Of a DNA stretch of 60,242 nt, positions 8,477 to 60,242 are shown piece by piece. A program made the position numbers and the translations under genes. The DNA is from an uncultured Candidatus Saccharibacteria bacterium (GTDB lineage: Bacteria; Patescibacteriota; Minisyncoccia; Minisyncoccales; CG1-02-41-26). Each line of letters opens with the position of its first letter. The stretch's first letter is position 1. The notes under the pieces were generated by a model. It did no database searches and was not told the DNA's origin. It saw only the letters and a list, made by a program, of their open reading frames with translations. The DNA lies in contig CAYLHU010000001.1 in NCBI GenBank assembly GCA_964383715.1, forward strand, positions 17,733 through 77,974. Direction: 5' to 3'.

Positions 8477-9106
8477 ATGGTTAAAAAAGTTAAAAGAAAA
8501 AGTTTATCTTCACCAAAGCTTCCGCCTTTGCCAAGGATTCCACTTTCGTCAGAGCTTCCACCTTCGTCAGAGCTTCCACCTTCGTCAGAGCTTCCGCCTT
8601 TGCCAGAGCTTCGGCCTTTGCCAGAGCTTCGGCGGACAAGTCGGCGGACAAGTCGGCGGACAAGTAAGCGAACAATAAAGAAGAAAAAAAGAGAAGAAAC
8701 TGATATCCAAAAGATTGTTAATCATTATTTTCAAACGAAAGGTTTTAGCTTAGAAAAAATAAAGAAAGACGCCAAGAAAAAGAAAATTATCTATTCCCGT
8801 TTTACTCGGCCGGCGAAACAACTTTTAGAATTGGCTGGTTCGGTTAAAAAAGCCCAAAAAGCGATTGATATTGTTGCCGGCTGGGCAAAATCAAGAAAAT
8901 TGGATTATGCGATTGAAACCGTTTTTAAGAAATGGTTAGAGATTGATAAATTAAAACCCAAAGAAATAGTCAAAAAGCCCTTTTTTGAGAATAAGCCGAT
9001 GGTTTGGTCGGGAAATTGGAAAAAATGGTATGTTATTGACGATAGTGGCGACTGGTTAGAGTTTGTCGGCGATGAAAAAAGCATTGAATGGCGGAAAATG
9101 AAATAA
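8477..9106 (+). CDS. Hypothetical protein with a tandem-repeat N-terminus
   Basis: The N-terminus reads LPPSSE x3, then LPPLPE/LRPLPE, then RRTS x3, encoded by 18-nt and 12-nt DNA tandem repeats. The C-terminal part is basic and has no recognisable family. Confidence 0.5.
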   Translation: MVKKVKRKSLSSPKLPPLPRIPLSSELPPSSELPPSSELPPLPELRPLPELRRTSRRTSRRTSKRTIKKKKREETDIQKIVNHYFQTKGFSLEKIKKDAKKKKIIYSRFTRPAKQLLELAGSVKKAQKAIDIVAGWAKSRKLDYAIETVFKKWLEIDKLKPKEIVKKPFFENKPMVWSGNWKKWYVIDDSGDWLEFVGDEKSIEWRKMK

Positions 9107-9572: not shown

Positions 9573-9654
9573 TTCACACCTTCTTTCTATGTTAGATTTT
9601 TAATTACCTATTGGCATTATACAATAACAATTTACAAAAGTCAATTAACGAACC

Positions 9655-9922
9655 CTTACGAAGTAAGGGTTCGTTGGAGATGAAGCTTTAGCTTCATCGA
9701 CTATACACCGAGCTTTTGCGAAGTAACTCAAAGATTTTTTTCAAAAATCTTTTCCACTCACCCTTGCTTTGCAAGGGTTCGTAAGCGAAGGTAATGCGAT
9801 GAAAGATTACTTTCATCTTAACTCGCTCACAAAATGAGCCCGTAGATGAGAGCGAAGCTCTCATCGCCTACGAGCCCACGAAGTGGGCGAGTCAAGATGA
9901 AGACGAAGTCTTCATCGCCTAC
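9655..9922. repeat. Hairpin-element array
   Basis: gatgaagctttagcttcatc (9679-9698), gatgaaagattactttcatc (9798-9817), gatgagagcgaagctctcatc (9845-9865), gcccacgaagtgggc (9874-9888), gatgaagacgaagtcttcatc (9896-9916), plus the composite accgagcttttgcgaag... module. Confidence 0.9.
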
Positions 9923-10669
9923 TTAGAACTTTCCAACCTCTTTTGTATAATGACAGTAATCGCAGTCCTTATCCATCTCTGGGACTTTATCATTTTTAAG
10001 ACACTCGGCAATGTCAAAAATAGTTTTTTCTATCCATTGGTCGTCTCCTTGATAAGGGATAATTTTAACATCAAATTCAATTTTTTTATCAAAGGCGTTT
10101 TTGTCGGCATCACCATTGCAATAAACAAAATAACTTGTTTCGGAAACCGGAAACCCATTTTTTCGAAAAAGCCATTGATAAATTTCTATTTGTCTTTTAT
10201 AAGCAATTTGCCAATCAGCGTCTAAGGAGACCTCTCCGCTTTTAGCGGTTGCCTTATAGTCAACTATCAAAAGCTCCCCGTTAGGTTTTTGCCAAACATC
10301 GTCAATAGCCCCCATAATTAAAAAGTTTGTCGGTTGGTGGAGATACTGGATTCCCCTTTTCCAATTGCGCCAATCATCAAGATATTGATTTTGGAAAGGG
10401 ACAGCATCAATATTGTATTCTTCCATTAAGGGGTGGCGGGATTTATTAATTCTGTGAAAATCAAATTCTTTTTTTAATAACTTATCCACGGCGCTATTTA
10501 GGGTAAAAGGAAACCCGGGTGGGCGACTTATCCCTAACCGGCAATCCAAGTAAAAACAGCGAGGACAATTCAAAAAGAGGTCAATTTTAGACCGACTTAT
10601 CTTGAAGGGCTCAATTGCTCCCGGGTCGTATAAATTATGAATTCTTTTAGGATTGTAAAATCGGGACAT
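9923..10669 (-). CDS. PD-(D/E)XK nuclease, Cas4/RecB-like with a Cys cluster
   Basis: N-terminal CPRCFYLDC, a D...IVDYK core, QIEIYQ (QxxxY) and C-terminal CDYCHY. This is the Cas4-like Fe-S nuclease layout. Confidence 0.7.
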   Translation of the reverse strand: MSRFYNPKRIHNLYDPGAIEPFKISRSKIDLFLNCPRCFYLDCRLGISRPPGFPFTLNSAVDKLLKKEFDFHRINKSRHPLMEEYNIDAVPFQNQYLDDWRNWKRGIQYLHQPTNFLIMGAIDDVWQKPNGELLIVDYKATAKSGEVSLDADWQIAYKRQIEIYQWLFRKNGFPVSETSYFVYCNGDADKNAFDKKIEFDVKIIPYQGDDQWIEKTIFDIAECLKNDKVPEMDKDCDYCHYTKEVGKF

Positions 10670-12642: not shown

Positions 12643-12894
12643 TTTTAGAAAATTTATTGATTAAATTTTAACGACCTTACTCTCAACTTGGAGATTACGG
12701 CACCTTCTCTAACAGAGATTTTATCTTACAAAATCTCATTTAAAGAATTGCTACTTTTGATTATACAGAAGTTATTTCTTTTGTCAAATGTTTTTTGGGG
12801 AAAACAAAAATCACAAAGGAAATTACGAAGGTTAAACCTTCGTAATTTTTAGTTTCTATTTTGAATCTATATTTTTTAAAAAAAAGGGGGTTGA

Positions 12895-16344: not shown

Positions 16345-16539
16345 ATATTTATTTTAGTTGTTATTACGATGATGATGAATTAAATATACATCATCTTAAT
16401 CTTAGTTATTATTCCTTCGACATTACGAATTCTAATTTTTCTCTTAATAATTAAATAATAGCAGAAAATATATTATTGTCAACCCTTAATCAATATTGTT
16501 GCAGGTCGTGGACGATGTTAGAACCTGATTAGTAGGAAT

Positions 16540-17140: not shown

Positions 17141-17419
17141 AAATACTATTTTATCTACTTTCAGTATAATCCTATTTTTCGAAGAATCCAAACAAAAAAT
17201 CGCTTGAATAAAAAAACGATTTGTATTTGTTGCGGAGCTTGGATTCAGACACCGAGTTTTTGCGAAGCAACTCAAAGAGATAAATCTCTTTTCTACTTTG
17301 CACTTTTGCTTCGCAAAAGTTTAAGTAAGTGAAGGTAAAGATGAATGCGGAGCATTCATCGCCCTTCGGGCTTTGTTCAAGATGAATGCTTGCTATTCCG
17401 TAGCCTTGGCGAAGGATAG
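17141..17419. repeat. Hairpin-element array, left flank of tRNA-Gln
   Basis: Contains the composite module accgagtttttgcgaagcaactcaaaga..., gatgaatgcggagcattcatc (17339-17359) and agcccttcgggct. Confidence 0.85.
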
Positions 17420-17490
17420 TTGCGGGGCTAGGACTCGAACCTAGATAGACAGCTCCAAGGGCTGTTGTCCTACCGTTAGACGACCCCGCA
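17420..17490 (-). tRNA. tRNA-Gln (anticodon UUG)
   Basis: Cloverleaf folded by hand. It has a U1-A72 pair, T arm CTAGG-TTCGAGT-CCTAG and anticodon arm ACAGC-CCTTGGA-GCTGT. The loop appears to have C at position 33. Confidence 0.75.
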
Positions 17491-17728
17491 TTAGGAAGTG
17501 AATAAGTGGATAAGTGGGGGCGATGAAGGAGTACCTTCATCTTGACTCGCTCACTTCGTGGGCTCGTAAGTGAACAAGTGGGTAAGTGGGTAAGTGAAGG
17601 CGATGAATACTCCGCATTCATCTTGACCCGCCCACTTCGTGGGCTCACGGGCGATGAATGTTTCGCATTCATCTTGACTCAACCCTTTGGGTTTCGTAAG
17701 TGAACAAGTGAGCACTTGAGCACTTAAA
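17491..17728. repeat. Hairpin-element array, right flank of tRNA-Gln
   Basis: Three units of gcgatgaNNN-loop-NNNtcatcttgac, each followed by a gcccacttcgtgggc-type UUCG hairpin. aagtg-rich words lie between them. Confidence 0.85.
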
Positions 17729-19100: not shown

Positions 19101-19142
19101 ACTATCATTATAATCTTATCATAAAACTTGTCAAGGTCTAAA

Positions 19143-19176
19143 AATGACGGGGTCAGACCCCGTCATTTATTTTGAA
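19143..19176. terminator. Bidirectional hairpin (atgacggggtcagaccccgtcat) flanked by A- and T-runs
   Basis: Perfect 10-bp stem. It belongs to a recurrent family (28300, 28410, 45155, 45465, 46005, 47695). Confidence 0.6.
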
Positions 19177-23082: not shown

Positions 23083-24132
23083 TTATACGACTTCCGGTTT
23101 TTCTATTTGTAACGGCTCAATTTTCTTTTCACCGTTAGTTATTTTGACTACATCTTTATCAATTTTTCCCAGCTCTCTATAAGCAATATTATAGCCGTTG
23201 CAAGTGGTTGTCAAATGACCACCGAGTTTTTTCATATATTCATCAAATCCCGCCAGATGACGGCCCAACCTTTCTACCCCCTCGCGAATTTTAACGGCTG
23301 AATCTTCTATTTGGAACGCCCTCAATCCCTGTAAAATGGTTTGGAGATAAGCGTAAAAGGTATTGGGAGAAACTATATGAACATGTTTATTTTTCGTGGC
23401 ATACTCAATCAAGTCACGGGTGTTGGATTTAATGGCTCCAATGTTATTGACCAATAAATCATAATAAATAGCTTCGGCAGGAATAAACATAAGAGCGAAG
23501 TCCAAAGTATTTTCTTGGGGTTTGATGTATTTTGCTGTTTCGTCTATTCTATTTTTTAAGTCCTGCTTAAATGATTTTTCTAAACCTTCTCGTCTAACAG
23601 GGTCTTTTTCTTTAATAATTCTGTTGTAGTTTTCCAGAGAAAACTTGGAATCAATGGGAATAATTTTATCTTTAATGAAAATTACAGCGTCCACTATTTC
23701 TCCATCACTAAACTTGTATTGTAATTGATATTGGCTTGGGCTAAAAACATTCTTTAATAATTCTTCAAGATAATACTCTCCCAAGATGCCTCTCTGTTTC
23801 GGATTTTTCAAAATGTTCTCTAATGACTGGAGTTGTTCGGCAAACCCCATTACTTGTTTATTGGTATTATCAAGTTCAGTGAGCCGACTGGTAACATCTT
23901 GGACAATTTTGCTACTTTCTTTCAGTTGTCCTTCTAAGGACTCCATATTTTTTTCTCGGCTTTCTTTTATTTCATCACGAATTTCTTTTAGGTCTTGTTT
24001 AATCAGTCCAAAAGCCGAGTCCTTCTCTCCCCCTCTTAATTTTTGGGACTCTTTTTTAATATAAACAATGGAAAATACAATTGCCACCAAAACAATCAAA
24101 AAAATAATTAAAATAAAAGTAAAATCTGACAT
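23083..24132 (-). CDS. rmuC: DNA recombination protein RmuC
   Basis: N-terminal TM helix, a coiled coil, then GILGEYYLEELL and MFIPAEAIYYDL. Confidence 0.85.
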   Translation of the reverse strand: MSDFTFILIIFLIVLVAIVFSIVYIKKESQKLRGGEKDSAFGLIKQDLKEIRDEIKESREKNMESLEGQLKESSKIVQDVTSRLTELDNTNKQVMGFAEQLQSLENILKNPKQRGILGEYYLEELLKNVFSPSQYQLQYKFSDGEIVDAVIFIKDKIIPIDSKFSLENYNRIIKEKDPVRREGLEKSFKQDLKNRIDETAKYIKPQENTLDFALMFIPAEAIYYDLLVNNIGAIKSNTRDLIEYATKNKHVHIVSPNTFYAYLQTILQGLRAFQIEDSAVKIREGVERLGRHLAGFDEYMKKLGGHLTTTCNGYNIAYRELGKIDKDVVKITNGEKKIEPLQIEKPEVV

Positions 24133-31514: not shown

Positions 31515-31601
31515 ACGAAGCCCGAAGGGCTGAGTTAAGATGAATGCGGAGCATTCATCGCCTGCAAATGAGCAAAGTGAGCTCGTCGAAAAGAGAAGTG
31601 C
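31515..31601. repeat. Hairpin elements between mraZ and rsmH
   Basis: agcccgaagggct (31519-31531) and gatgaatgcggagcattcatc (31539-31559). The latter is identical to the copy at 17339. Confidence 0.85.
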
Positions 31602-37765: not shown

Positions 37766-38126
37766 ATTTAGGTGCGTTTTGGGACGATCGTCCTAGAATG
37801 ACCTTTTTCCCCCTTTTTCTCCCTTTTTTGCCTATATCTATCTATTTATTTATTTTATAACAAATCCTGACGATCGGCGATATTTGTTATAAAATGTTTC
37901 TTTTGCCTTATCCTGTCTATCTTTACATTTGGGTGCGTTTTGGGACGATCGTCCTAGAATGACCTTTTTCCCCCTTTTTCTCCCTTTTTTGCCTATATCT
38001 ATCTATTTATTTATTTTATAACAAATCCTGACGATCGGCGATATTTGTTATAAAATGTTTCTTTTGCCTTATCCTGTCTATCTTTACATTTGGGTGCGTT
38101 TTGGGACGATCGTCATAGAATGCACC
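37766..38126. repeat. 161-bp tandem repeat, about 2.2 copies
   Basis: ggtgcg starts at 37771, 37932 and 38093, giving a period of 161. Each unit holds a CGATCG-centred palindrome and the hairpin ttttataacaaat-[cctgacgatcggcgat]-atttgttataaaa. Confidence 0.9.
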
Positions 38127-45040: not shown

Positions 45041-45220
45041 AAATTGAAACTTATTTTCCGTAAACCTATACAAATTCCATATAAACCTATACATTATAAG
45101 TATATATTTTAGATAAATGTTTGTCAAATCAATATTTATCAAAAAAATGAAGAAAAAATACGGAGGTCAGACCTCCGTATTTCCCCATCCCACTGTTCGC
45201 TATTTATTGCTCACTACCTA

Positions 45221-45433: not shown

Positions 45434-45493
45434 AATTTTATTTTTTAACTAAAATTAACTGCTTAAATTACGGAGGTCAGACCTCCGTAATTT

Positions 45494-45658: not shown

Positions 45659-45928
45659 TTAATTAAGTCCTCGACTTTTATATTTATTTTTAATAATGAG
45701 AATCCCACTAACGATTAACATAGCACCAATTGAAATTGATAAAAGGGTGTTAGGATAATAAAAATAAGCTACTCCTACTATCTTCTCAGCTCCCACTGCA
45801 GGTAAACGAAGACCATAGCTAGTTCTATAGGAAAAGCCAAAAATGTTATATGCACAAAGTCCTGTGCCAATTATAATCATTATTGCTCCTAAGTATTGTT
45901 TTATAAATTTCTTAATTTTTTCTCTCAT
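45659..45928 (-). CDS. Small membrane protein (hypothetical)
   Basis: The start at ATG 45928 (MREKIKKF) is preferred. The sequence upstream of it is a duplicated non-coding leader, also found upstream of the DUF3800-like gene. Confidence 0.45.
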   Translation of the reverse strand: MREKIKKFIKQYLGAIMIIIGTGLCAYNIFGFSYRTSYGLRLPAVGAEKIVGVAYFYYPNTLLSISIGAMLIVSGILIIKNKYKSRGLN

Positions 45929-46207
45929 AAATTTATTTTTCGCTCTTTCTTTTAAAATACTCCCTTTTTCATCTTTTATCAATCCTTTTGGAGAAGAATA
46001 AAAGATGACTGGGTTAAACCCAGTCATCTTTTGTCGTTGTCCACTAACATTAAATTACCGGGGTCAGACCTCGGTATTTTAATAATATGATAAAATTTGA
46101 GCGAAGCGAAAATTTGCAGCAGGGGCGGCAGGGCGCTACGAGATAAATCTCGTCTTTCCCTTTGCCCTACCATAAAATAAAAAACACATTTAGTGTTTTT
46201 TATTTTA
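45929..46207 (-). repeat. Duplicated leader module, copy L
   Basis: Aligns with 47619-47949, apart from an extra roughly 50 nt in copy R. It holds two hairpins and a 17-nt fragment of the tRNA-Trp 3' end (46117-46133). Confidence 0.85.
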
Positions 46208-46283
46208 TGGCAGGGGCGGCAGGGATCGGACCTGCAACCTTTGGTTTTGGAGACCAATGCTCTTCCAGTTGAGCTACACCCCT
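46208..46283 (-). tRNA. tRNA-Trp (anticodon CCA), copy 1, CCA encoded
   Basis: AGGGGTGTAGCTCAACTGGAAGAGC, anticodon arm TTGGT-CTCCAAA-ACCAA, and 3' end CGCCCCT-G-CCA. The T-loop reads TCCGATC, so C sits at the usually invariant U55 position. Confidence 0.8.
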
Positions 46284-46310
46284 AATTTTTCATAAAATTA
46301 TAATATTTTC

Positions 46311-46661
46311 TTACGCTTCTTTGTCTTTCTTTAAGTTAGCGCAATAGGCAAAATGAAAAAAATACTTGTCTAAGTCCTTTAAAGAGCTTTTATATTCTTT
46401 TCCTCCCGAAATTGCATCTAAAAAAACTTCTCTGGCTCGAGCAATTTCTCGCAATCGTTCTATCCAACGGGGGTCCCCTAATGTTAGGTCAAAAAGTTCA
46501 AGGGTTCGAGACACGGCATTTTTGAAGTTATCTTGATTTTCATTTTTCCAGCGAAGCACTCTACTCACTTCGCTCCCGATATTCCCGAGTTGCTCACAAA
46601 GAGAAAGATTTTGCCAACCTCCCGAAGATAATTCTTTATGAATGGATTTATAATTTTCCAT
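46311..46661 (-). CDS. Hypothetical all-alpha protein, paralog 1 (possibly MazG-like NTP-PPase superfamily)
   Basis: About three quarters of residues are identical by eye to 48050-48400. The motif CEQLGNIGSEV weakly resembles the MazG EExGE helix. Confidence 0.5.
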   Translation of the reverse strand: MENYKSIHKELSSGGWQNLSLCEQLGNIGSEVSRVLRWKNENQDNFKNAVSRTLELFDLTLGDPRWIERLREIARAREVFLDAISGGKEYKSSLKDLDKYFFHFAYCANLKKDKEA

Positions 46662-46855: not shown

Positions 46856-47618
46856 ACTCTAATTTACTATCGTCATGATGAAAATGAATGTTAAAAGTAT
46901 AATTTCTAAAATTATTCGTTAGTGTTTTGACGCCTAAATTCTCCTTAAATCTTTCCACGAATTTTCCTTTATATAAAGATGGTTTATCAATAATTTTTTC
47001 TTTAAGTAGTAGTTCATAGTTTATTGAACCAATTAACAAATCTGTTAATTGTAATAAGTCATTTGTTTTTGAATCCAAACGGCAAACTCCGGCAATGGCT
47101 AATCTTTTAAACTTGTTATTTACGCTATTTTTAACATTAACCTCAAACTTTATAATTTTTGGTGCAGTCATATCATCTGCTAAAACTATTAAAACCTCGT
47201 TTTTGCCTAAATTTCCTATTAATAATTGTTTAACGATTTGCTCATAAGCAATCCAAGGATTTTCGTTAAACTCTTTTTTGAAATACTCACTTCTCTTGTC
47301 TATTGTATAAGAAGCAAATTTCACACTTTTTGTTTCAAATAAAGTGTCCAAAACTTCTGATGCAATATTTATTTTAACTTTATTCAGATTATTAAATTTC
47401 AATTCCCACCAAAACCTATTTTTAGACCTAATATATTTTATTTTTTGTTGCAGGTAATATGGTTGTGAGCATTTTATCATTCCAACCGTAAAATACGGTT
47501 GGCTTTTTATGTCTAAAGTTCCTGATTCGTCAATAAAACAAAAAGGTGTCCAAATATTTTTATAGTCAGCTAAAGCTAATGCTTTATTTGTTTCTTTTTT
47601 ATTAAGATTATCAACCAT
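46854..47618 (-). CDS. DUF3800-like protein
   Basis: N-terminal FIDESG and C-terminal DSKTNDLLQLTDLLIG match the DUF3800 pattern as I recall it. Confidence 0.6.
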   Translation of the reverse strand: MVDNLNKKETNKALALADYKNIWTPFCFIDESGTLDIKSQPYFTVGMIKCSQPYYLQQKIKYIRSKNRFWWELKFNNLNKVKINIASEVLDTLFETKSVKFASYTIDKRSEYFKKEFNENPWIAYEQIVKQLLIGNLGKNEVLIVLADDMTAPKIIKFEVNVKNSVNNKFKRLAIAGVCRLDSKTNDLLQLTDLLIGSINYELLLKEKIIDKPSLYKGKFVERFKENLGVKTLTNNFRNYTFNIHFHHDDSKLE

Positions 47619-47949
47619 AAATTTATTTTTCGCTCTTTCTTTTAAAATACTCCCTTTTTGTCTTTTATCAATCTTTTTAGAGAAGAATAAAAAATGACTG
47701 GGTTTAACCCAGTCATTTTTTGTCGTTGTCCTACCAGTATTAAATTACCGGGGTCAGACCTCGGTATTTTAATAATATTATAAAATTTGAGCGAAGCGAA
47801 AATTTGCAGCAGGGGTGGCAGGAGGCGATGAGAACGAAGTTCTCATCTTGACTTCTCGCTACGCTCGTCGCGTGCTACGAGATAAATCTCGTCTTTCCCT
47901 TTGCTCTACCATAAAATAAAAAACGCATTCAGCGTTTTTTACTTTTCAG
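47619..47949 (-). repeat. Duplicated leader module, copy R, with an inserted hairpin element
   Basis: Same as copy L, plus an insertion at about 47823-47875 that contains gatgagaacgaagttctcatc. The tRNA 3' fragment lies at 47807-47822. Confidence 0.85.
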
Positions 47950-48022
47950 CAGGGGTGGCAGGGATCGAACCTGCAACCTTTGGTTTTGGAGACCAATGCT
48001 CTTCCAGTTGAGCTACACCCCT
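47950..48022 (-). tRNA. tRNA-Trp (anticodon CCA), copy 2, no encoded CCA
   Basis: Same sequence as copy 1 except for a canonical TTCGATC T-loop, a T6-A67 pair in place of T6.G67, and a 3' flank of CTG instead of CCA. Confidence 0.85.
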
Positions 48023-48049
48023 AATTTTTCATAAAATTATAATATTTTC

Positions 48050-48400
48050 TTACACTTTTTTATCTTTTTTTAAGTTAGCGCAATAGGCAAAATGAAAGAA
48101 ATATTGTTCTAAGTCCTTTAAGGAACTTTTGTATTCTTTTCCTCCCGAAATTGCGTCTAAAAATACTTCTCTAACTCGACCGATTTCTCTCAATCTTCCT
48201 TTCCAACGAGGGTCATCTAATGTTAAGTCAAAGAGTTCTAATGCTCGTTCAACTGCACCCCGAAAAAGATTTTTGTCTTTTCCTTGCCACCTATATGCTC
48301 TGCCGACTTCACTCCCGATATTCCCGAGTTGTTCGCAAAGAGAGAATTTTTGCCATTTTCCTGAATATAATTCTTTATGAATGGGCTTATAATTTTTCAT
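48050..48400 (-). CDS. Hypothetical all-alpha protein, paralog 2
   Basis: The start at MKNYKPIH (48400) gives a length matching paralog 1 and avoids overlap with the upstream MazG gene. Confidence 0.5.
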   Translation of the reverse strand: MKNYKPIHKELYSGKWQKFSLCEQLGNIGSEVGRAYRWQGKDKNLFRGAVERALELFDLTLDDPRWKGRLREIGRVREVFLDAISGGKEYKSSLKDLEQYFFHFAYCANLKKDKKV

Positions 48401-49496: not shown

Positions 49497-49757
49497 ATGA
49501 AATACCCGGAAAGTTTAGTAAAGAGGATCAGGGAAGAGTTCTCAGAAAAACATCTTCTGTTCGCGTTAGATCAGCAGAATACTCGCTTCGTGAGTGTCTT
49601 CCTCGAAGATAATTGTCAAGACGGCTTTGATCTTTTGGCCGAAAAAGTCCTTGTCGCTCTAAATGAAGGTGACTTGTTGATCATTAGGGAAGCGGCAGAG
49701 AAAGCGATCCGTCGAAAAAAACTTTATGAAGATTGGTTAAAGTATCTTCAGGAGTAG
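49497..49757 (+). CDS. Small hypothetical protein (86 aa)
   Basis: Own canonical promoter, strong SD and a plausible terminator (about 49790-49822). More G+C-rich by eye. Confidence 0.5.
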   Translation: MKYPESLVKRIREEFSEKHLLFALDQQNTRFVSVFLEDNCQDGFDLLAEKVLVALNEGDLLIIREAAEKAIRRKKLYEDWLKYLQE

Positions 49758-49834
49758 TAAATATCAACTATTCGGCATTAACTACCCTATGGCCCTGCGA
49801 TAACATCAACGGGCTTTTTCATTTCGTAGTTTTT

Positions 49835-50035
49835 AATTATTTACGAGTTTTTGCGAAGCAAGTCAAAGATTTTTTTTCAAAAATCTTTTCCACTCACTTG
49901 CTCCGCAAGTTCGTAAGCGAGTCAATCGATGAGGGTTCCACCCTCATCTTTACAAGCTCACTTTGTTCGCTTGTAGATGAAAGTACTCTTTCATCGCAAA
50001 TCACTGACATTCTAACATTCCAACAATTCCAATAT
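49835..50035. repeat. Hairpin-element array downstream of rpmG
   Basis: The composite module acgagtttttgcgaagcaagtcaaaga...tcttttccactcac is shared with 9705-9790 and 17250-17330. Also gatgagggttccaccctcatc and gatgaaagtactctttcatc. Confidence 0.85.
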
Positions 50036-50040
50036 TTCCC

Positions 50041-50202
50041 CTACTTCTTCCCTTCCTTATGTAAAACATGCTTCTTGCACCACTTGCAAAACTTCTTCAG
50101 CCCTAATTTTTCTTCAACTCCTTTTGATTTGTTGACCCTATAATTAACTCTTTTACATTCAGAGCATTGGAGTTTTATAAAGGGTTTCTTTTTTTTAGCC
50201 AT
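50041..50202 (-). CDS. rpmG: 50S ribosomal protein L33, absent from the ORF track
   Basis: My translation is MAKKKKPFIKLQCSECKRVNYRVNKSKGVEEKLGLKKFCKWCKKHVLHKEGKK. It has the CxxC...CxxC zinc ribbon and the LELKKFC-like motif typical of L33. Confidence 0.85.
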   Translation of the reverse strand: MAKKKKPFIKLQCSECKRVNYRVNKSKGVEEKLGLKKFCKWCKKHVLHKEGKK

Positions 50203-50392: not shown

Positions 50393-50448
50393 AGATAAAT
50401 AAAAAGATTATTTATCATTTATTAATAATCATTTATTAATAATTATTA

Positions 50449-50533
50449 TGGGTGCGGTCGGAGTCGAACCGACGGGGCTCAAAAGAACAACTGTTTTACA
50501 GACAGATCCCACCCCCTATGGGACTACGCACCC
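50449..50533 (-). tRNA. tRNA-Tyr (anticodon GUA), long variable arm
   Basis: GGGTGCG acceptor, anticodon loop CTGTAAA, a long extra arm and T arm GTCGG-TTCGACT-CCGAC. Confidence 0.8.
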
Positions 50534-51193
50534 ACGAGCGATTATATACGAAAGCTTTGCTTTCGTATATAATCGCGAGTTAAGATGAAAGTAATCTTTC
50601 ATCGCCCACAAACTTATAATTATGAAAACTTTTTTTCATAATTATAAGTTTGTCAAGATGAGGGTAATCCCTCATCGCTATCGAGTGGTTAATTATGAAA
50701 GAGTTTCTTTCATAATTATAGGTTTATGAAGATGAGGGTAATCCCTCATCGCTAACGCTCGAACAGGCAAGAGCAATGAATGCTTCGCATTCATCTTTAC
50801 TCAGCCCTTCGGGCTTCGTTCAAGATGAGGGTAATCCTTCATCGACCGAGACTTCGCTTCGCGAAGTCGAAGGTGGAAAAGAGAACGGAGTTCTCTTTGA
50901 CTATAATCGAGTTTACGAAGCATTCAATGAAAACTTTCTTTCATAATTATAAGTTTGTCAAGATGAGGGCGGAGCCCTCATCGCTAACGCTCGAACAGGC
51001 AAGAGCGATGAATGCTTCGCATTCATCTTTACTCAGCCCTTCGGGCTTCGTTCAAGATGAGAGTAATCTCTCATCGGCCGAGACTTCGCTTCGCGAAGTC
51101 GAAGGTGGAAAAGAGAACGGAGTTCTCTTTGACTATAATCGAGTTTACGAAGCACTCAATGAAAACTTTGTTTTCATATCTAATCGTGAGTCA
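50534..51193. repeat. Largest hairpin-element array, containing a 232-bp tandem duplication
   Basis: At least 12 distinct hairpins. gctaacgctcgaacagg starts at 50751 and again at 50983. Eight GATGA...TCATC-type stems. Confidence 0.9.
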
Positions 51194-51916
51194 TTATAAA
51201 ATTATTTTACTATGCTTGTCTCTCCATTCCTTAATTTTTTTATGGTCGCCTGATAATAAAACTTTTGGCACTTGCCACTTCTTCTTTTTAAGAGAGTTTA
51301 TAAAAACTTCAGGTCGGGTATATTGAGGATATTCTATAAACCCTTTATCTTTACTTATTCTCTCTTTTAACAATTCCGGTTTACCAATAACTCCCGGCAA
51401 TAATCTAACCACGGTTTCAATTAACACCAAGGAAGCCAACTCTCCTCCCATCAAAACATAATCCCCTATTGAGACCTCTTCGTCAGTAATATACTTAGCC
51501 ACCCTTTCATCAATCCCTTCATAACGGCCGGAAATCAAAATTAATTTGTCATATTGGGAAAACTTCGTAGCCATTTTTTGATTGAATTTCTTCCCCCGTG
51601 GCGTAAATAGAATTATTTTTGATTTTTTGTTCTTAATGGTTCGGCTTTGCTCACCATCAACCCTGAGCGAAGTCGAAGGATTATTTTTTAGTTTTAAAGA
51701 TTGAATACATCGATAAATGGGTTCAATTTTGATAACCATTCCCCTACCTCCGCCGAAGGGCTTGTCATCCACTGTTTTTCTTTTATCCTTAGAAAAATCC
51801 CTCAAATCGTGAATCTTGATTTTAACAATTTTCTTATCCCTAGCTTTTTTAAGAAGCGATTGATTCAAATAAAAATCAAAAATCTTTGGGAAAATTGTAA
51901 TAATATCAATGTCCAT
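51194..51916 (-). CDS. trmD: tRNA (guanine37-N1)-methyltransferase TrmD
   Basis: DIITIFPKIF, GGGRGMV and SGRYEGIDERV. The start at MDIDII (51916) is preferred. Confidence 0.88.
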   Translation of the reverse strand: MDIDIITIFPKIFDFYLNQSLLKKARDKKIVKIKIHDLRDFSKDKRKTVDDKPFGGGRGMVIKIEPIYRCIQSLKLKNNPSTSLRVDGEQSRTIKNKKSKIILFTPRGKKFNQKMATKFSQYDKLILISGRYEGIDERVAKYITDEEVSIGDYVLMGGELASLVLIETVVRLLPGVIGKPELLKERISKDKGFIEYPQYTRPEVFINSLKKKKWQVPKVLLSGDHKKIKEWRDKHSKIIL

Positions 51917-52416: not shown

Positions 52417-52971
52417 TTATTTGTCAATATTTTTTTCTTTTTTCGGTTTTTCGGGTTTTTGGGACTTATCTCCCTCTTCTTTGCCCACAGGTTTATCCAT
52501 TGGCTTGTCTATTGGCTTATTCACCGGTTTACTCACCTCCGCTTCCAAAGGAGCTTTGGCGGGGGAAGAAACTGAATCCTTAGTAGCTCCCCCTTTTTCT
52601 ATAGAAGCTTCAACGGGCAAAGGAGTAGAGATTTTTTCCTCTTTATTTTTTGATTTAATCGCTTCTTGTCCCGAGACATCTTTCCCCTCTTCGCTCTTCT
52701 TCTTAGATTTTTTATGGACATCTATTTTTTTACCCTTAATAATCCCCTCTTTGACTAATAAATTATGAACCGTATCCGATGTTTGGGCACCGACTGAAAG
52801 CCAATACTTGATTCTTTCGGATTTTAAAACCTTTTCCTTCGTTAAAGGATTGTAAGAACCTAATATTTCCAAAAATCTTCCTCCTTGAGGAGAATTTTTC
52901 TTTTCGGTGATCACTATTCGAAAAAAGGTTTGATTCCTTTTTCCTGTTTTGAAAAATCGTATTGTTAACAT
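52417..52971 (-). CDS. rpsP: 30S ribosomal protein S16 with a long low-complexity C-terminal tail
   Basis: MLTIRFFKTGKRNQTFFRIVI ... GSYNPL core. About 100 extra residues include KPVNKPIDKPMDKPVGK repeats. Confidence 0.88.
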   Translation of the reverse strand: MLTIRFFKTGKRNQTFFRIVITEKKNSPQGGRFLEILGSYNPLTKEKVLKSERIKYWLSVGAQTSDTVHNLLVKEGIIKGKKIDVHKKSKKKSEEGKDVSGQEAIKSKNKEEKISTPLPVEASIEKGGATKDSVSSPAKAPLEAEVSKPVNKPIDKPMDKPVGKEEGDKSQKPEKPKKEKNIDK

Positions 52972-59695: not shown

Positions 59696-59897
59696 AATGT
59701 CTAATTTCTAATTTCTAATTCCTAATGAAATCCCAATGACCAAATTCCAAACCCCAATCAAACCCTAAACCCTAATTTCTAAATCCTAAACAAATCATAA
59801 GTCCCAAATTCTAAATCCTAAACCCGTTTATAATTTATTATTTATTATTTAGGATTTGTTTATTATTTGTGATTTGTTATTTGTTATTTAAATTTTT

Positions 59898-60242
59898 ATG
59901 GTAATAAAAATTAATACTATTCGGCATTCTCTATCCCATATTCTCGCTTATGCGGTTCAGGAATTATATCCCGGAACCAAGTTTGGCATTGGTCCTGCTA
60001 TTGAAAATGGCTTTTATTACGATTTTGATATGATAAACTCGATTGCTTTAGATTCTTTGCCAAAAATTGAAAAAAAGATGAAAGAGCTGATTAAAAAGGA
60101 CATTAAGTTCAGAAAAAAAATCGTATCTCGAACAGAATCTAAAAAAATATTCAGGAACCAACCGTATAAATCGGAAATAATTAAGGACTTGATAAAGGGC
60201 GATGAAGCTAAAGCTTCATCTTCCCCCCTCGCTAACGCTCGG
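59898..60242 (+). CDS. thrS: Threonine--tRNA ligase, 5' part, running off the window; no N-terminal TGS domain
   Basis: I translated from the ATG at 59898: MVIKINTIRHSLSHILAYAVQELYPGTKFGIGPAIENGFYYDFD. This is the ThrRS editing-domain signature. Confidence 0.85.
   Translation, partial: MVIKINTIRHSLSHILAYAVQELYPGTKFGIGPAIENGFYYDFDMINSIALDSLPKIEKKMKELIKKDIKFRKKIVSRTESKKIFRNQPYKSEIIKDLIKGDEAKASSSPLANAR

Follow-up and report, generated by a model that had tools for sequence, protein, structure and literature searches.

For the short hairpin repeats described here, the closest described systems are the REP sequences and the RPEs of Rickettsia. REPs carry an unpaired tag, either GTAG or CGTC (TGTC/CCTC), and those of the CGTC type have A-T at the first two stem positions together with a CCA tail (Di Nocera et al., 2013, PMC3733652; Nunvar et al., 2010, PMC2817692). 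A genome with GTAG-type REPs also holds the gene for a cognate RAYT, a Y1 HUH transposase, flanked by REPs, and the RAYT/HUH enzymes, which recognise REP hairpins on single-stranded DNA, are the nearest precedent for the mobilisation of such repeats (PMC2817692; PMC3733652). The comparison with RPEs draws on Ogata et al. (2000, 2002), as summarised in PMC10969869 and PMC3733652. Stem-loop TIGR units are common in CPR bacteria. Their definition calls for two variable spacers of 8–12 nt, each lying between a box C (CNA) and a box D (YG) and enclosed by a stem of 5 bp or more, with a Nop-domain tas gene next to them; their stem is conserved only by box C/D, with CUU at its base, and they may lie in frame in coding sequences (Faure et al., 2025, PMC12045711; Xu et al., 2026, bioRxiv 10.64898/2026.09.09.750476).

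The window analysed here, that is the whole 60,242-nucleotide stretch, has 34% G+C and carries compact housekeeping genes. These include dnaE, dnaB, cysS, sufBD, trmD, nusB and the RNase III gene, as well as genes for an Asp/Asn-type class II tRNA synthetase, a Mur ligase and a penicillin-binding protein. The CysRS of the window is at most 66% identical to that of any of the 185,579 species representatives searched, and its best matches all come from Patescibacteria of the Paceibacteria group (labelled Nealsonbacteria, Staskawiczbacteria, Paceibacterota and similar). The window sequence recurs at 99.7–100% identity on contigs from several ENA and JGI metagenomes.

The initial annotation drew attention to four hairpins in the spacer 9655–9922 that share a GATGA/TCATC outer stem, counted at least 20 such stems in the window, and described an invariant stem base enclosing a covarying inner stem; each of these observations held up under quantitative analysis. 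The pattern GATGA-N3-(loop 3–8)-N3-TCATC, scanned with no requirement for inner-stem pairing, matched the window 21 times, against a mean of 0.25 and a maximum of 2 in dinucleotide shuffles. True hairpins account for 20 of the 21 matches and lie at the seven loci originally named (9.7, 17.3–17.7, 31.5, 47.8, 49.9, 50.6–51.1 and 60.2 kb); the remaining match, at 16374, has one of its three inner positions paired and was discarded as chance. A covariance model, built from window and metagenome copies and run over the window with filters off, recovered the same 20 copies and added a variant at 50776–50794 (G to A in the outer stem), giving 21 full-length copies. In the spacer 9655–9922 the four inner stems are exactly AGC/GCT, AAG/CTT, GAG/CTC and AGA/TCT, as first described.

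The inner stems, of which there are eight types, are fully Watson–Crick in 18 of the 20 window copies and have one mismatch in the other two. In a pooled set of 38 distinct copies, drawn from the window and metagenome contigs, pairing holds in 95.9% of cells. The non-window copies in this set had been chosen for having 7 or more stem pairs, which makes the unbiased window figure the stronger evidence. Two-sided changes were found in 57 cells of the 38-copy set, compared with 17.4 ± 3.8 after shuffling (none of 500 shuffles reached 57), and controls with slid partners gave 1–17 cells changed on both sides. Pairing is kept beyond chance as the inner stem changes. Two processes could produce such covariation, namely selection acting on the fold and templated correction of (quasi-)palindromes.

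The flanks are also conserved, much as the initial annotation had it (gcGATGA...TCATCttgac). The flank consensus is GGC|GATGA...TCATC|TTGAC, in which two bases, the C ahead of GATGA and the T behind TCATC, never vary; it is asymmetric, and every copy therefore has an orientation. Indeed, the covariance-model scores of the two strands differ by 15–30 bits for each copy. Oriented by its flanks, the element reads (G)GC GATGA RNN [c-TYC-g / ATTA / AGTA / TAAA] NNY TCATC TTGAC, with a stem of 8–9 bp and a conserved core of ∼ 32 nt. Loops had been given as 4–6 nt, often cgaa; they measure 3–5 nt, and the frequent cGAAg is more aptly described as a triloop, GAA, with C-G as its closing pair. On one of the two strands, around half of the loops are c-GAA-g or c-GGA-g. 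Since GNA triloops with a C-G closing pair have unusual stability in single-stranded DNA, one strand of these copies may form particularly stable DNA hairpins. Loop classes are less variable than inner stems, a pattern that plain neutral decay does not predict.

The positions of the arrays, single units and their component hairpins are collected in the table.

Table. GATGA elements, companion hairpins and composite repeats in the window (positions are those of the window; strand refers to the flank-defined orientation)
Feature	Position	Strand	Context or remarks
Hairpin array, 9.7 kb	9647..9918	mixed	Spacer after the stop of a PD-(D/E)XK nuclease gene (9923-10669, minus), ahead of the promoter of the following gene
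GATGA elements of the 9.7 kb array	9679-9698 (-), 9798-9817 (+), 9845-9865 (-), 9896-9916 (-)
Companion hairpins of the 9.7 kb array	9871-9891, 9820-9840, 9760-9778, 9730-9752, 9647-9675
Array, 17 kb	17236..17700	mixed	Either side of tRNA-Gln (17419-17490, minus strand)
GATGA elements of the 17 kb array	17340-17360 (-), 17522-17541 (+), 17602-17622 (+), 17653-17673 (+)
Companions CTCGCYCAC-TTC-GTGGGCTCG	17546-17566, 17626-17646		17 kb array
∼ 100-nt composite repeat	17236-17330		17 kb array
Single GATGA element (31539-31559) with a GCCC-TTCG-GGC hairpin	31515..31595	-	Between mraZ and rsmH/mraW
49-nt unit: GATGA hairpin (47827-47847) and CTCGCTACGCTCG	47823..47871	+
Array, 49.9 kb	49830..49997	mixed	3' of an 86-aa ORF; composite repeat 49830-49925
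GATGA elements of the 49.9 kb array	49928-49948 (+), 49976-49995 (-)
Largest array	50538..51190	mixed	Between a tRNA pair and trmD; nine GATGA elements
GATGA elements of the largest array	50584 (-), 50657 (-), 50731 (-), 50776 (+, G>A variant), 50824 (-), 50962 (-), 51007 (+), 51056 (-)
Degenerate GATGA copy (ninth element)	51159		Largest array
Other hairpins of the largest array			AAAGAGAAC, GACTTCGC, GCCC-TTCG-GGC
Tandem 232-bp block	50695-50945 vs 50927-51178		Largest array; 93% identity
48-nt unit in thrS: GATGA hairpin (60201-60220) and CTCGCTAACGCTCGG	60198..60242	+	In frame, encodes GDEAKASSSPLANARL

Non-genic DNA makes up 18.5% of the window but houses 20 of the 21 copies (P ∼ 4e-14). 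The spacers concerned lie between same-strand or converging genes, around tRNA genes and 3' of ORFs and stop codons, and no copies were found in the divergent promoter spacers of the window. Both orientations of the element coexist within single spacers. The element between mraZ and rsmH/mraW stands inside what is normally one operon.

Companion hairpins had been reported to accompany the GATGA stems, and these are present. The working unit is ∼ 48 nt long and consists of a GATGA hairpin, flanks included, and after it a companion hairpin, CTCGC-variable-GCTCG, which has an invariant base and a variable interior of its own and fills the interval between GATGA hairpins. The companion occurs in a long form (CTCGC-CCAC-TTC-GTGG-GCTCG) and a short form (CTCGC-TAAC-GCTCG), and adjacent GATGA hairpins are spaced 45–51 nt apart regardless of their orientation. 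A third module, GTC|AAAGA...TCTTT|TCCAC, has the same plan as the GATGA module, as does a GGC|GAAGA...TCTTC|TTCAC family found in relatives; the general frame of these modules combined is GKC-RAWGA...TCWTY-TYNAC. In addition, copies of a ∼ 100-nt composite repeat are found at three places in the window (9.7, 17.2 and 49.8 kb) and on one further contig. The spacers are therefore mosaics of a few hairpin modules, much like BIMEs. The two-hairpin module, its precise gain and loss, and the position of the 60.2 kb copy in frame in thrS had no place in the initial annotation.

Gain and loss can be followed at several sites. A segmental duplication within the window (45.9–46.7 versus 47.6–48.2 kb) aligns cleanly except for one 49-nt gap. 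This gap corresponds exactly to the GATGA hairpin and companion at 47823–47871, the unit being missing from the paralogous spacer at 46132/46135. At an orthologous locus, one unit is present on two contigs (L096 and L184) and four units with a 47-bp period on a third (L111), while a further contig (L123) carries five units with a 49-bp period, the inner stems of which differ. The alignments, including those of the coding insertions described below, show that units are gained or lost precisely and as a whole, in spacers as well as in frame within coding sequences, and the periodic arrays and the duplicated 232-bp block show local amplification in tandem. Terminal inverted repeats or a target-site duplication could not be defined at the three insertion sites; a possible 6-of-7 terminal inverted repeat, GCGATGA/TCGTCGC, was seen at one site only. 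Among population contigs that are 99.7–100% identical to the window over the aligned stretches, there was no presence/absence polymorphism of elements, and no ongoing movement was seen in this organism.

The copy at 60.2 kb lies within a coding sequence. The window stops 22 nt beyond the hairpin of this unit, 3 nt before the unit is complete. On longer contigs from this organism, the gene encodes a complete ThrRS of 599 aa. Relative to its two closest homologues (80% identity), the window ThrRS contains a 16-aa (48-nt) insert, DEAKASSSPLANARLA in the alignment. The loop concerned is empty in 13 of 15 aligned homologues, the other two (P0008 and P0013) carrying inserts of their own. At the DNA level, the empty site in the relative L217 reads ATA AAA | GAC AAA CAG GGA, and the filled site in the window reads ATA AAG [GGC GAT GAA GCT AAA GCT TCA TCT TCC CCC CTC GCT AAC GCT CGG TTA] GCA CAA CAA GGA, a difference in length of 48 nt. 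This 48-nt unit recurs, in an identical reading frame and with a few substitutions, in the gene for a 793-aa protein on contig L094 (perhaps from another genome) and also on L204, where the unit encodes GDEAKASSSSFANARL; the product is a Wzy_C/TPR-like (O-antigen-ligase/TPR-like) membrane protein that is unrelated to ThrRS. Moreover, the GAAGA/TCTTC sister family is found in frame in thrS, twice in gatB, and in miaB in another Paceibacteria genome (L216). Its thrS insert occupies the same loop as that of the window, in the opposite orientation. Finally, the TrmD of L217/L218 is without a 14-aa insert that in the window protein starts with companion-module sequence.

The distribution of the element among relatives is uneven. 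In 1.1 Mb of sequence from 83 relatives, the covariance model gave 19 weak hits, compared with 21 copies in the 60-kb window. The closest relative found (L217/L218; 80% ThrRS identity) is syntenic but has compact spacers and almost no elements; its dnaE and thrS genes overlap, and its S16 protein has 104 aa as against 184 aa in the window. Among the metagenome motif matches listed, most are due to chance and ∼ 15 loci, all of low G+C, are real. Six matches on viral contigs were set aside as chance, being of high G+C with non-complementary centres. Given the sister family in L216, which looks richer in intragenic copies, the phenomenon is wider than the genome of the window, with stem variants and expansions specific to lineages.

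One site behaves differently. A 52-nt block with one element, GGCGATGAAAACTTTGTTTTCATCTTGACGCTTCACTAAC(G/A)TTCGCGTAAAT, is near-invariant at an orthologous site in three genomes in which the flanking genes are only 70–80% identical, and it is better conserved than the adjacent tRNA gene. In all three genomes the upstream gene ends within the element, its stop codon being part of GATGA, and the downstream tRNA genes differ. This conservation suggests function or strong constraint, or else site-specific re-insertion, rather than neutral junk. The block sits awkwardly with a purely selfish picture of the element.

On this evidence, the family is probably a lineage-specific set of short, oriented palindromic repeats, a mobile element of REP/RPE-like kind in a Paceibacteria (CPR) genome. 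Its spread would need a trans-acting factor, which would recognise the hairpin by its invariant base, unpaired flanks and loop, most likely on single-stranded DNA, as HUH/RAYT-type enzymes do. The inner stem would then only have to pair, with pairing kept by selection or by templated palindrome repair. The unit combines with other hairpin modules of the same plan to give mosaic arrays. Most copies would be near-neutral passengers in 3' untranslated or inter-cistronic RNA, and a few may have gained a host role. A more ambitious formulation, which we put forward tentatively and regard as rather doubtful, is that the modules belong to a Paceibacteria-specific superfamily of ∼ 48-nt two-hairpin mobile units built on the general frame given above. 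These would be spread by a hairpin-recognising enzyme other than a RAYT and would repeatedly remodel essential proteins (ThrRS, GatB, MiaB and TrmD), with some copies, such as the 52-nt block upstream of a tRNA gene, becoming domesticated.

A candidate for such a factor was sought in the genes near the elements. Pfam scans of the tested window ORFs of at least 100 aa found no HUH/Y1, transposase, integrase or Nop domain, in line with the earlier statement that no partner protein is encoded in the window. Likewise, no transposase, HUH/Y1, integrase or Nop domain was found in the window, in the 9.4 kb to its right or in ∼ 100 kb of other element-bearing contigs, and a regular expression for the HUH...Y motif matched none of the ORFs in ∼ 170 kb. 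In a further Pfam scan, 64 ORFs from element-bearing loci were submitted as one alignment; this procedure reports only families matched by several members, so that a single transposase is compatible with its outcome. The ten ORFs nearest to the arrays are unrelated housekeeping genes, and the unannotated ORFs beside the 9.7 kb array have no match among PDB sequences. CGTC-type REPs and RPEs are likewise without a known enzyme, and the lack of a partner is therefore not disqualifying.

Several aspects of the arrays could also be accounted for if they were mainly host RNA elements, serving in 3'-end protection, in processing or attenuation, or in insulation between genes and around tRNAs, with selection acting at the RNA level and mobility being incidental. 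We consider this unlikely. The arrays start a few nucleotides past stop codons and end before the next promoter; that at 9.7 kb starts 6 nt past the stop codon and ends before a TTGACT-17-TATAAT promoter (9644–9616). Arrays also flank tRNA genes, one copy separates mraZ from rsmH, and the 52-nt block, with a stop codon inside its GATGA, is near-invariant at its orthologous site. Moreover, the spacer 9640–9925 is essentially a string of around ten hairpins and folds very strongly as RNA (z = -11.7 relative to shuffles for RNA of the minus strand; z = -9.9 for DNA of the plus strand). However, the presence of both orientations in a spacer means that half of the copies show the transcript the other loop and flanks, there is no T-run after the hairpins, and the genome possesses separate canonical terminator hairpins, a family of A-tract/stem/T-tract structures. 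Perfect copies lie in frame inside thrS and another gene, and the closest relative does without copies at the same loci.

A mobile unit or trans-acting factor would be superfluous if the hairpins had arisen locally, through template switching during replication (snap-back synthesis) and slippage, with their similarity to one another reflecting sequence bias. The nearly always perfect stems, the variation of inner stems but not of loops, the purine-rich 5' arms and the frequency of tandem duplications are all in keeping with such an origin. It is nonetheless improbable, since unrelated loci and other contigs have the asymmetric flanks, the loop classes and the companion in common, and the same 48-nt unit, with few substitutions, is found in two unrelated genes. 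Furthermore, a local process would not yield an invariant GATGA bounded by GGC and TTGAC.

That the arrays are stem-loop TIGR units or a derivative of them, giving rise to guide RNAs for a Nop-domain Tas protein, is very improbable, despite a resemblance that extends to several features. The host is a CPR bacterium, in TCATC|TTGAC a CUU falls at the stem base, this base is conserved with the rest of the stem varying, some copies are in frame in genes, and the ∼ 48-nt unit is close to the 54 nt of the PateTasR tigRNA. Against this, unique spacers of 8–12 nt are missing: conserved modules and the variable 3–4 bp of inner stem account for all of the sequence, and the covariation favours hairpins with loops of 3–5 nt over stems flanking a pair of spacers. 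The published stem-loop rule, re-implemented as box C CNA or CTT, a 9-nt spacer, box D YG and a stem of at least 5 bp, gave one hit in the window, outside the arrays, which is the level of chance (0–4 in shuffles). Neither the window nor its right flank has a Nop/Tas gene, no Nop domain turned up among the window ORFs or the genes called on two other contigs (L001 and L211), and the unannotated array neighbours lack PDB sequence matches. The copies are also dispersed beside unrelated housekeeping genes.

It is scarcely credible that GATGA-N10-11-TCATC is a double-stranded DNA operator for a dimeric regulator, for although its inverted half-sites are invariant and their spacing is fixed, operators do not need a self-complementary centre, up to nine copies crowd a single spacer, and the copies lie 3' of genes and inside thrS with none in a divergent promoter spacer.

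Other candidates were rejected outright. No GATGA element scored as an intrinsic terminator, T-runs are missing and a perfect copy lies inside the essential thrS gene; TTGAC was dismissed as a -35 box, the sole strong promoter being downstream of the 9.7 kb array and outside the elements. A box C/D K-turn was discounted because GATGA is Watson–Crick paired, which makes its likeness to RUGAUGA superficial. CRISPR arrays (no unique spacers), integron attC sites (no GTTRRRY core, no cassette organisation) and inverted pairs of DNA uptake sequences (the flanks are asymmetric) were likewise eliminated.

An Rfam scan of the window returned only seven tRNAs, with no family reaching its gathering score for the hairpins, and no description of repeats of this kind in CPR bacteria was found in the literature. 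The earlier remark that no described class has this consensus is thus borne out as far as Rfam and the CPR literature are concerned. The genomes of CPR bacteria are generally regarded as small, streamlined and poor in repeated DNA. In the window, spacers are inflated by short palindromic modules relative to a compact closest relative at the same loci. The writing of modules in frame into essential genes is a second, independent case of the phenomenon seen in Rickettsia. An invariant base and flanks around a free inner stem form a signature that can lead to a new enzyme recognising DNA or RNA hairpins, if one exists. The arrays also affect assembly and annotation: the window edge lies in the thrS unit, and gene callers produce spurious ORFs across arrays.

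Compared with known systems, the family resembles MITEs such as Correia, ERIC and BOX in being a short, non-autonomous folding repeat near genes, co-transcribed with them and occasionally in frame; it differs in that the unit is shorter than the typical 50–500 bp and, apart from the possible 6-of-7 repeat at one site, terminal inverted repeats and target-site duplications could not be defined. With TIGR it shares CPR hosts, tandem hairpin units of ∼ 50 nt and conservation of the stem over a few base pairs, but its units have tiny loops, are without dual spacers, a box C/D frame or an adjacent tas gene, and occupy many housekeeping loci.

The likeness to RPEs is closer. In both cases palindromic repeats stand in frame in unrelated housekeeping genes, where they add a conserved hydrophilic peptide, and also in spacers; the hosts are dependent organisms with small genomes, and neither family has a known mobilising enzyme. 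On the figures given in the summaries cited above, classical RPE-1 is ∼ 100–150 bp long, compared with 48 nt for the unit described here, and around half of the copies of some RPE families are intragenic, compared with ∼ 5% here. For the RPE-1 to RPE-10 families, the comparison of motifs covered the CGTC form taken by RPE-4 and RPE-6, to which the window motif is unrelated.

The differences from REPs lie in the tags, the unit and the host. The window family has a GTCAA/TTGAC tag with a GCC/GGC tail and a stem that starts G-C, A-T; GTAG precedes only 2 of the 20 window copies, and the tags by which the known REP superfamilies are defined, GTAG and CGTC, are absent. The mobile unit is a ∼ 48-nt two-hairpin module with no RAYT in ∼ 170 kb, and Patescibacteria are not among the phyla reported to carry REPs. 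In its architecture, by comparison, the family fits the REP/BIME description of the GTAG and CGTC superfamilies, namely a 20–40-nt palindromic unit with a 5–13-bp stem and a short loop (PMC3733652; PMC2817692). Like REPs, it has short, unpaired, conserved ends that confer orientation, and many copies (21 in the 60-kb window) clustered in both orientations. Its copies lie between unidirectional or convergent genes and 3' of ORFs, with occasional intragenic examples, and fall into sub-families by stem and loop. That part of the REP assignment, extragenic, clustered, in both orientations and 3' of ORFs, was confirmed. Overall, in a phylum in which no REP- or RPE-like elements were found described, these appear to be small palindromic mobile repeats, and the REP-like interpretation is right in kind.

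A 52-nt block carrying one GATGA element, an oriented hairpin of the form GATGA...TCATC, is near-identical across three genomes, where its flanking genes are 70-80% identical. The block is situated between a stop codon, which itself lies within GATGA, and a tRNA gene, and it is more strongly conserved than that adjoining gene.

Features on the window and on metagenome contigs (unlabelled coordinates refer to the window)
Feature	Location	Remarks
52-nt block, one GATGA element	L096 3423-3480; L184 3090-3147; L111 6340-6429	
87-nt tRNA	50448-50534, minus strand	Phe(aaa) by ARAGORN; Rfam score only 35.8 bits
Array-spanning ORFs, 136-166 aa	17172-17672; 49733-50143; 50780-51199	
Degenerate 8-nt tandem repeats (AAGTGNAN)	17491-17520; 17566-17600; 17690-17728; L123 3510-3578	adjoining hairpin arrays
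Unannotated 209-aa ORF	8477-9106	N-terminal tandem peptide repeats (SSELPP, LPELRP, RRTS)
161-bp tandem unit, 2.2 copies	37766-38122	inside 608-bp spacer
Long hairpin, gatc loop	24349-24384	
Long hairpin, gatc loop	L218 17000-17043	closest relative
AAATTACGGAGGT-cag-ACCTCCGTAATTT type hairpins	12820-12848; 19142-19168; 45156-45182; 45465-45493; 46000-46032; 47689-47721	
RmuC-family gene	23083-24132	

A segmental duplication (45926-46661 and 47616-48150, 84-94% identity) takes in tRNA-Trp(CCA) together with an ORF, 116-135 residues long and lacking annotation, and its two copies are distinguished by the 49-nt indel of a GATGA hairpin with its companion hairpin. Judging from its anticodon loop, CUGUAAA, the 87-nt tRNA probably belongs to class II, as a tRNA-Tyr(GUA) whose variable arm is long.

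The three ORFs that span hairpin arrays are almost certainly spurious. One of them shares a strand with tRNA-Gln and overlaps it; the gene calls on matching public contigs of the same organism include two of the three (L001 2998-3498 and L211 3206-3616).

On L123, another contig bearing GATGA elements, a sigma-70 family protein has its C-terminal tail formed by the 8-nt repeats (...GEVDKWTSGQVDK...). Degenerate short repeats of the CTAAAYY type fill the dnaE-thrS spacer (59696-59898), and the inverted complement of these repeats comes after them; the closest relative has no spacer here, its dnaE and thrS overlapping. Compared with the same relative, TrmD (51640-51690) contains a 14-residue insert, the DNA of which starts with companion-module sequence (CCTTCGACTTCGC), and ribosomal protein S16 (rpsP, 52417-52660) has an 80-residue low-complexity C-terminal extension. 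The unannotated ORF with tandem peptide repeats varies in length among population contigs, with 203 residues on L001 and 209 on L002.

Two further families of inverted repeats are distinct from the GATGA elements. The first comprises palindromes with CGATCG at the centre (TTTTGGGACGATCGTCCTAGAA), which are contained in the 161-bp tandem unit, together with the long hairpins closed by a gatc loop. In the second, the AAATTACGGAGGT-cag-ACCTCCGTAATTT type, the stem is preceded by an A-tract and followed by a T-tract, an arrangement that looks like that of bidirectional intrinsic terminators.

The window also encodes an RmuC-family protein. A role in curbing rearrangement at short inverted repeats has been attributed to RmuC in E. 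coli, and the presence of this gene may be relevant to such a palindrome-rich genome, or else may be a coincidence.
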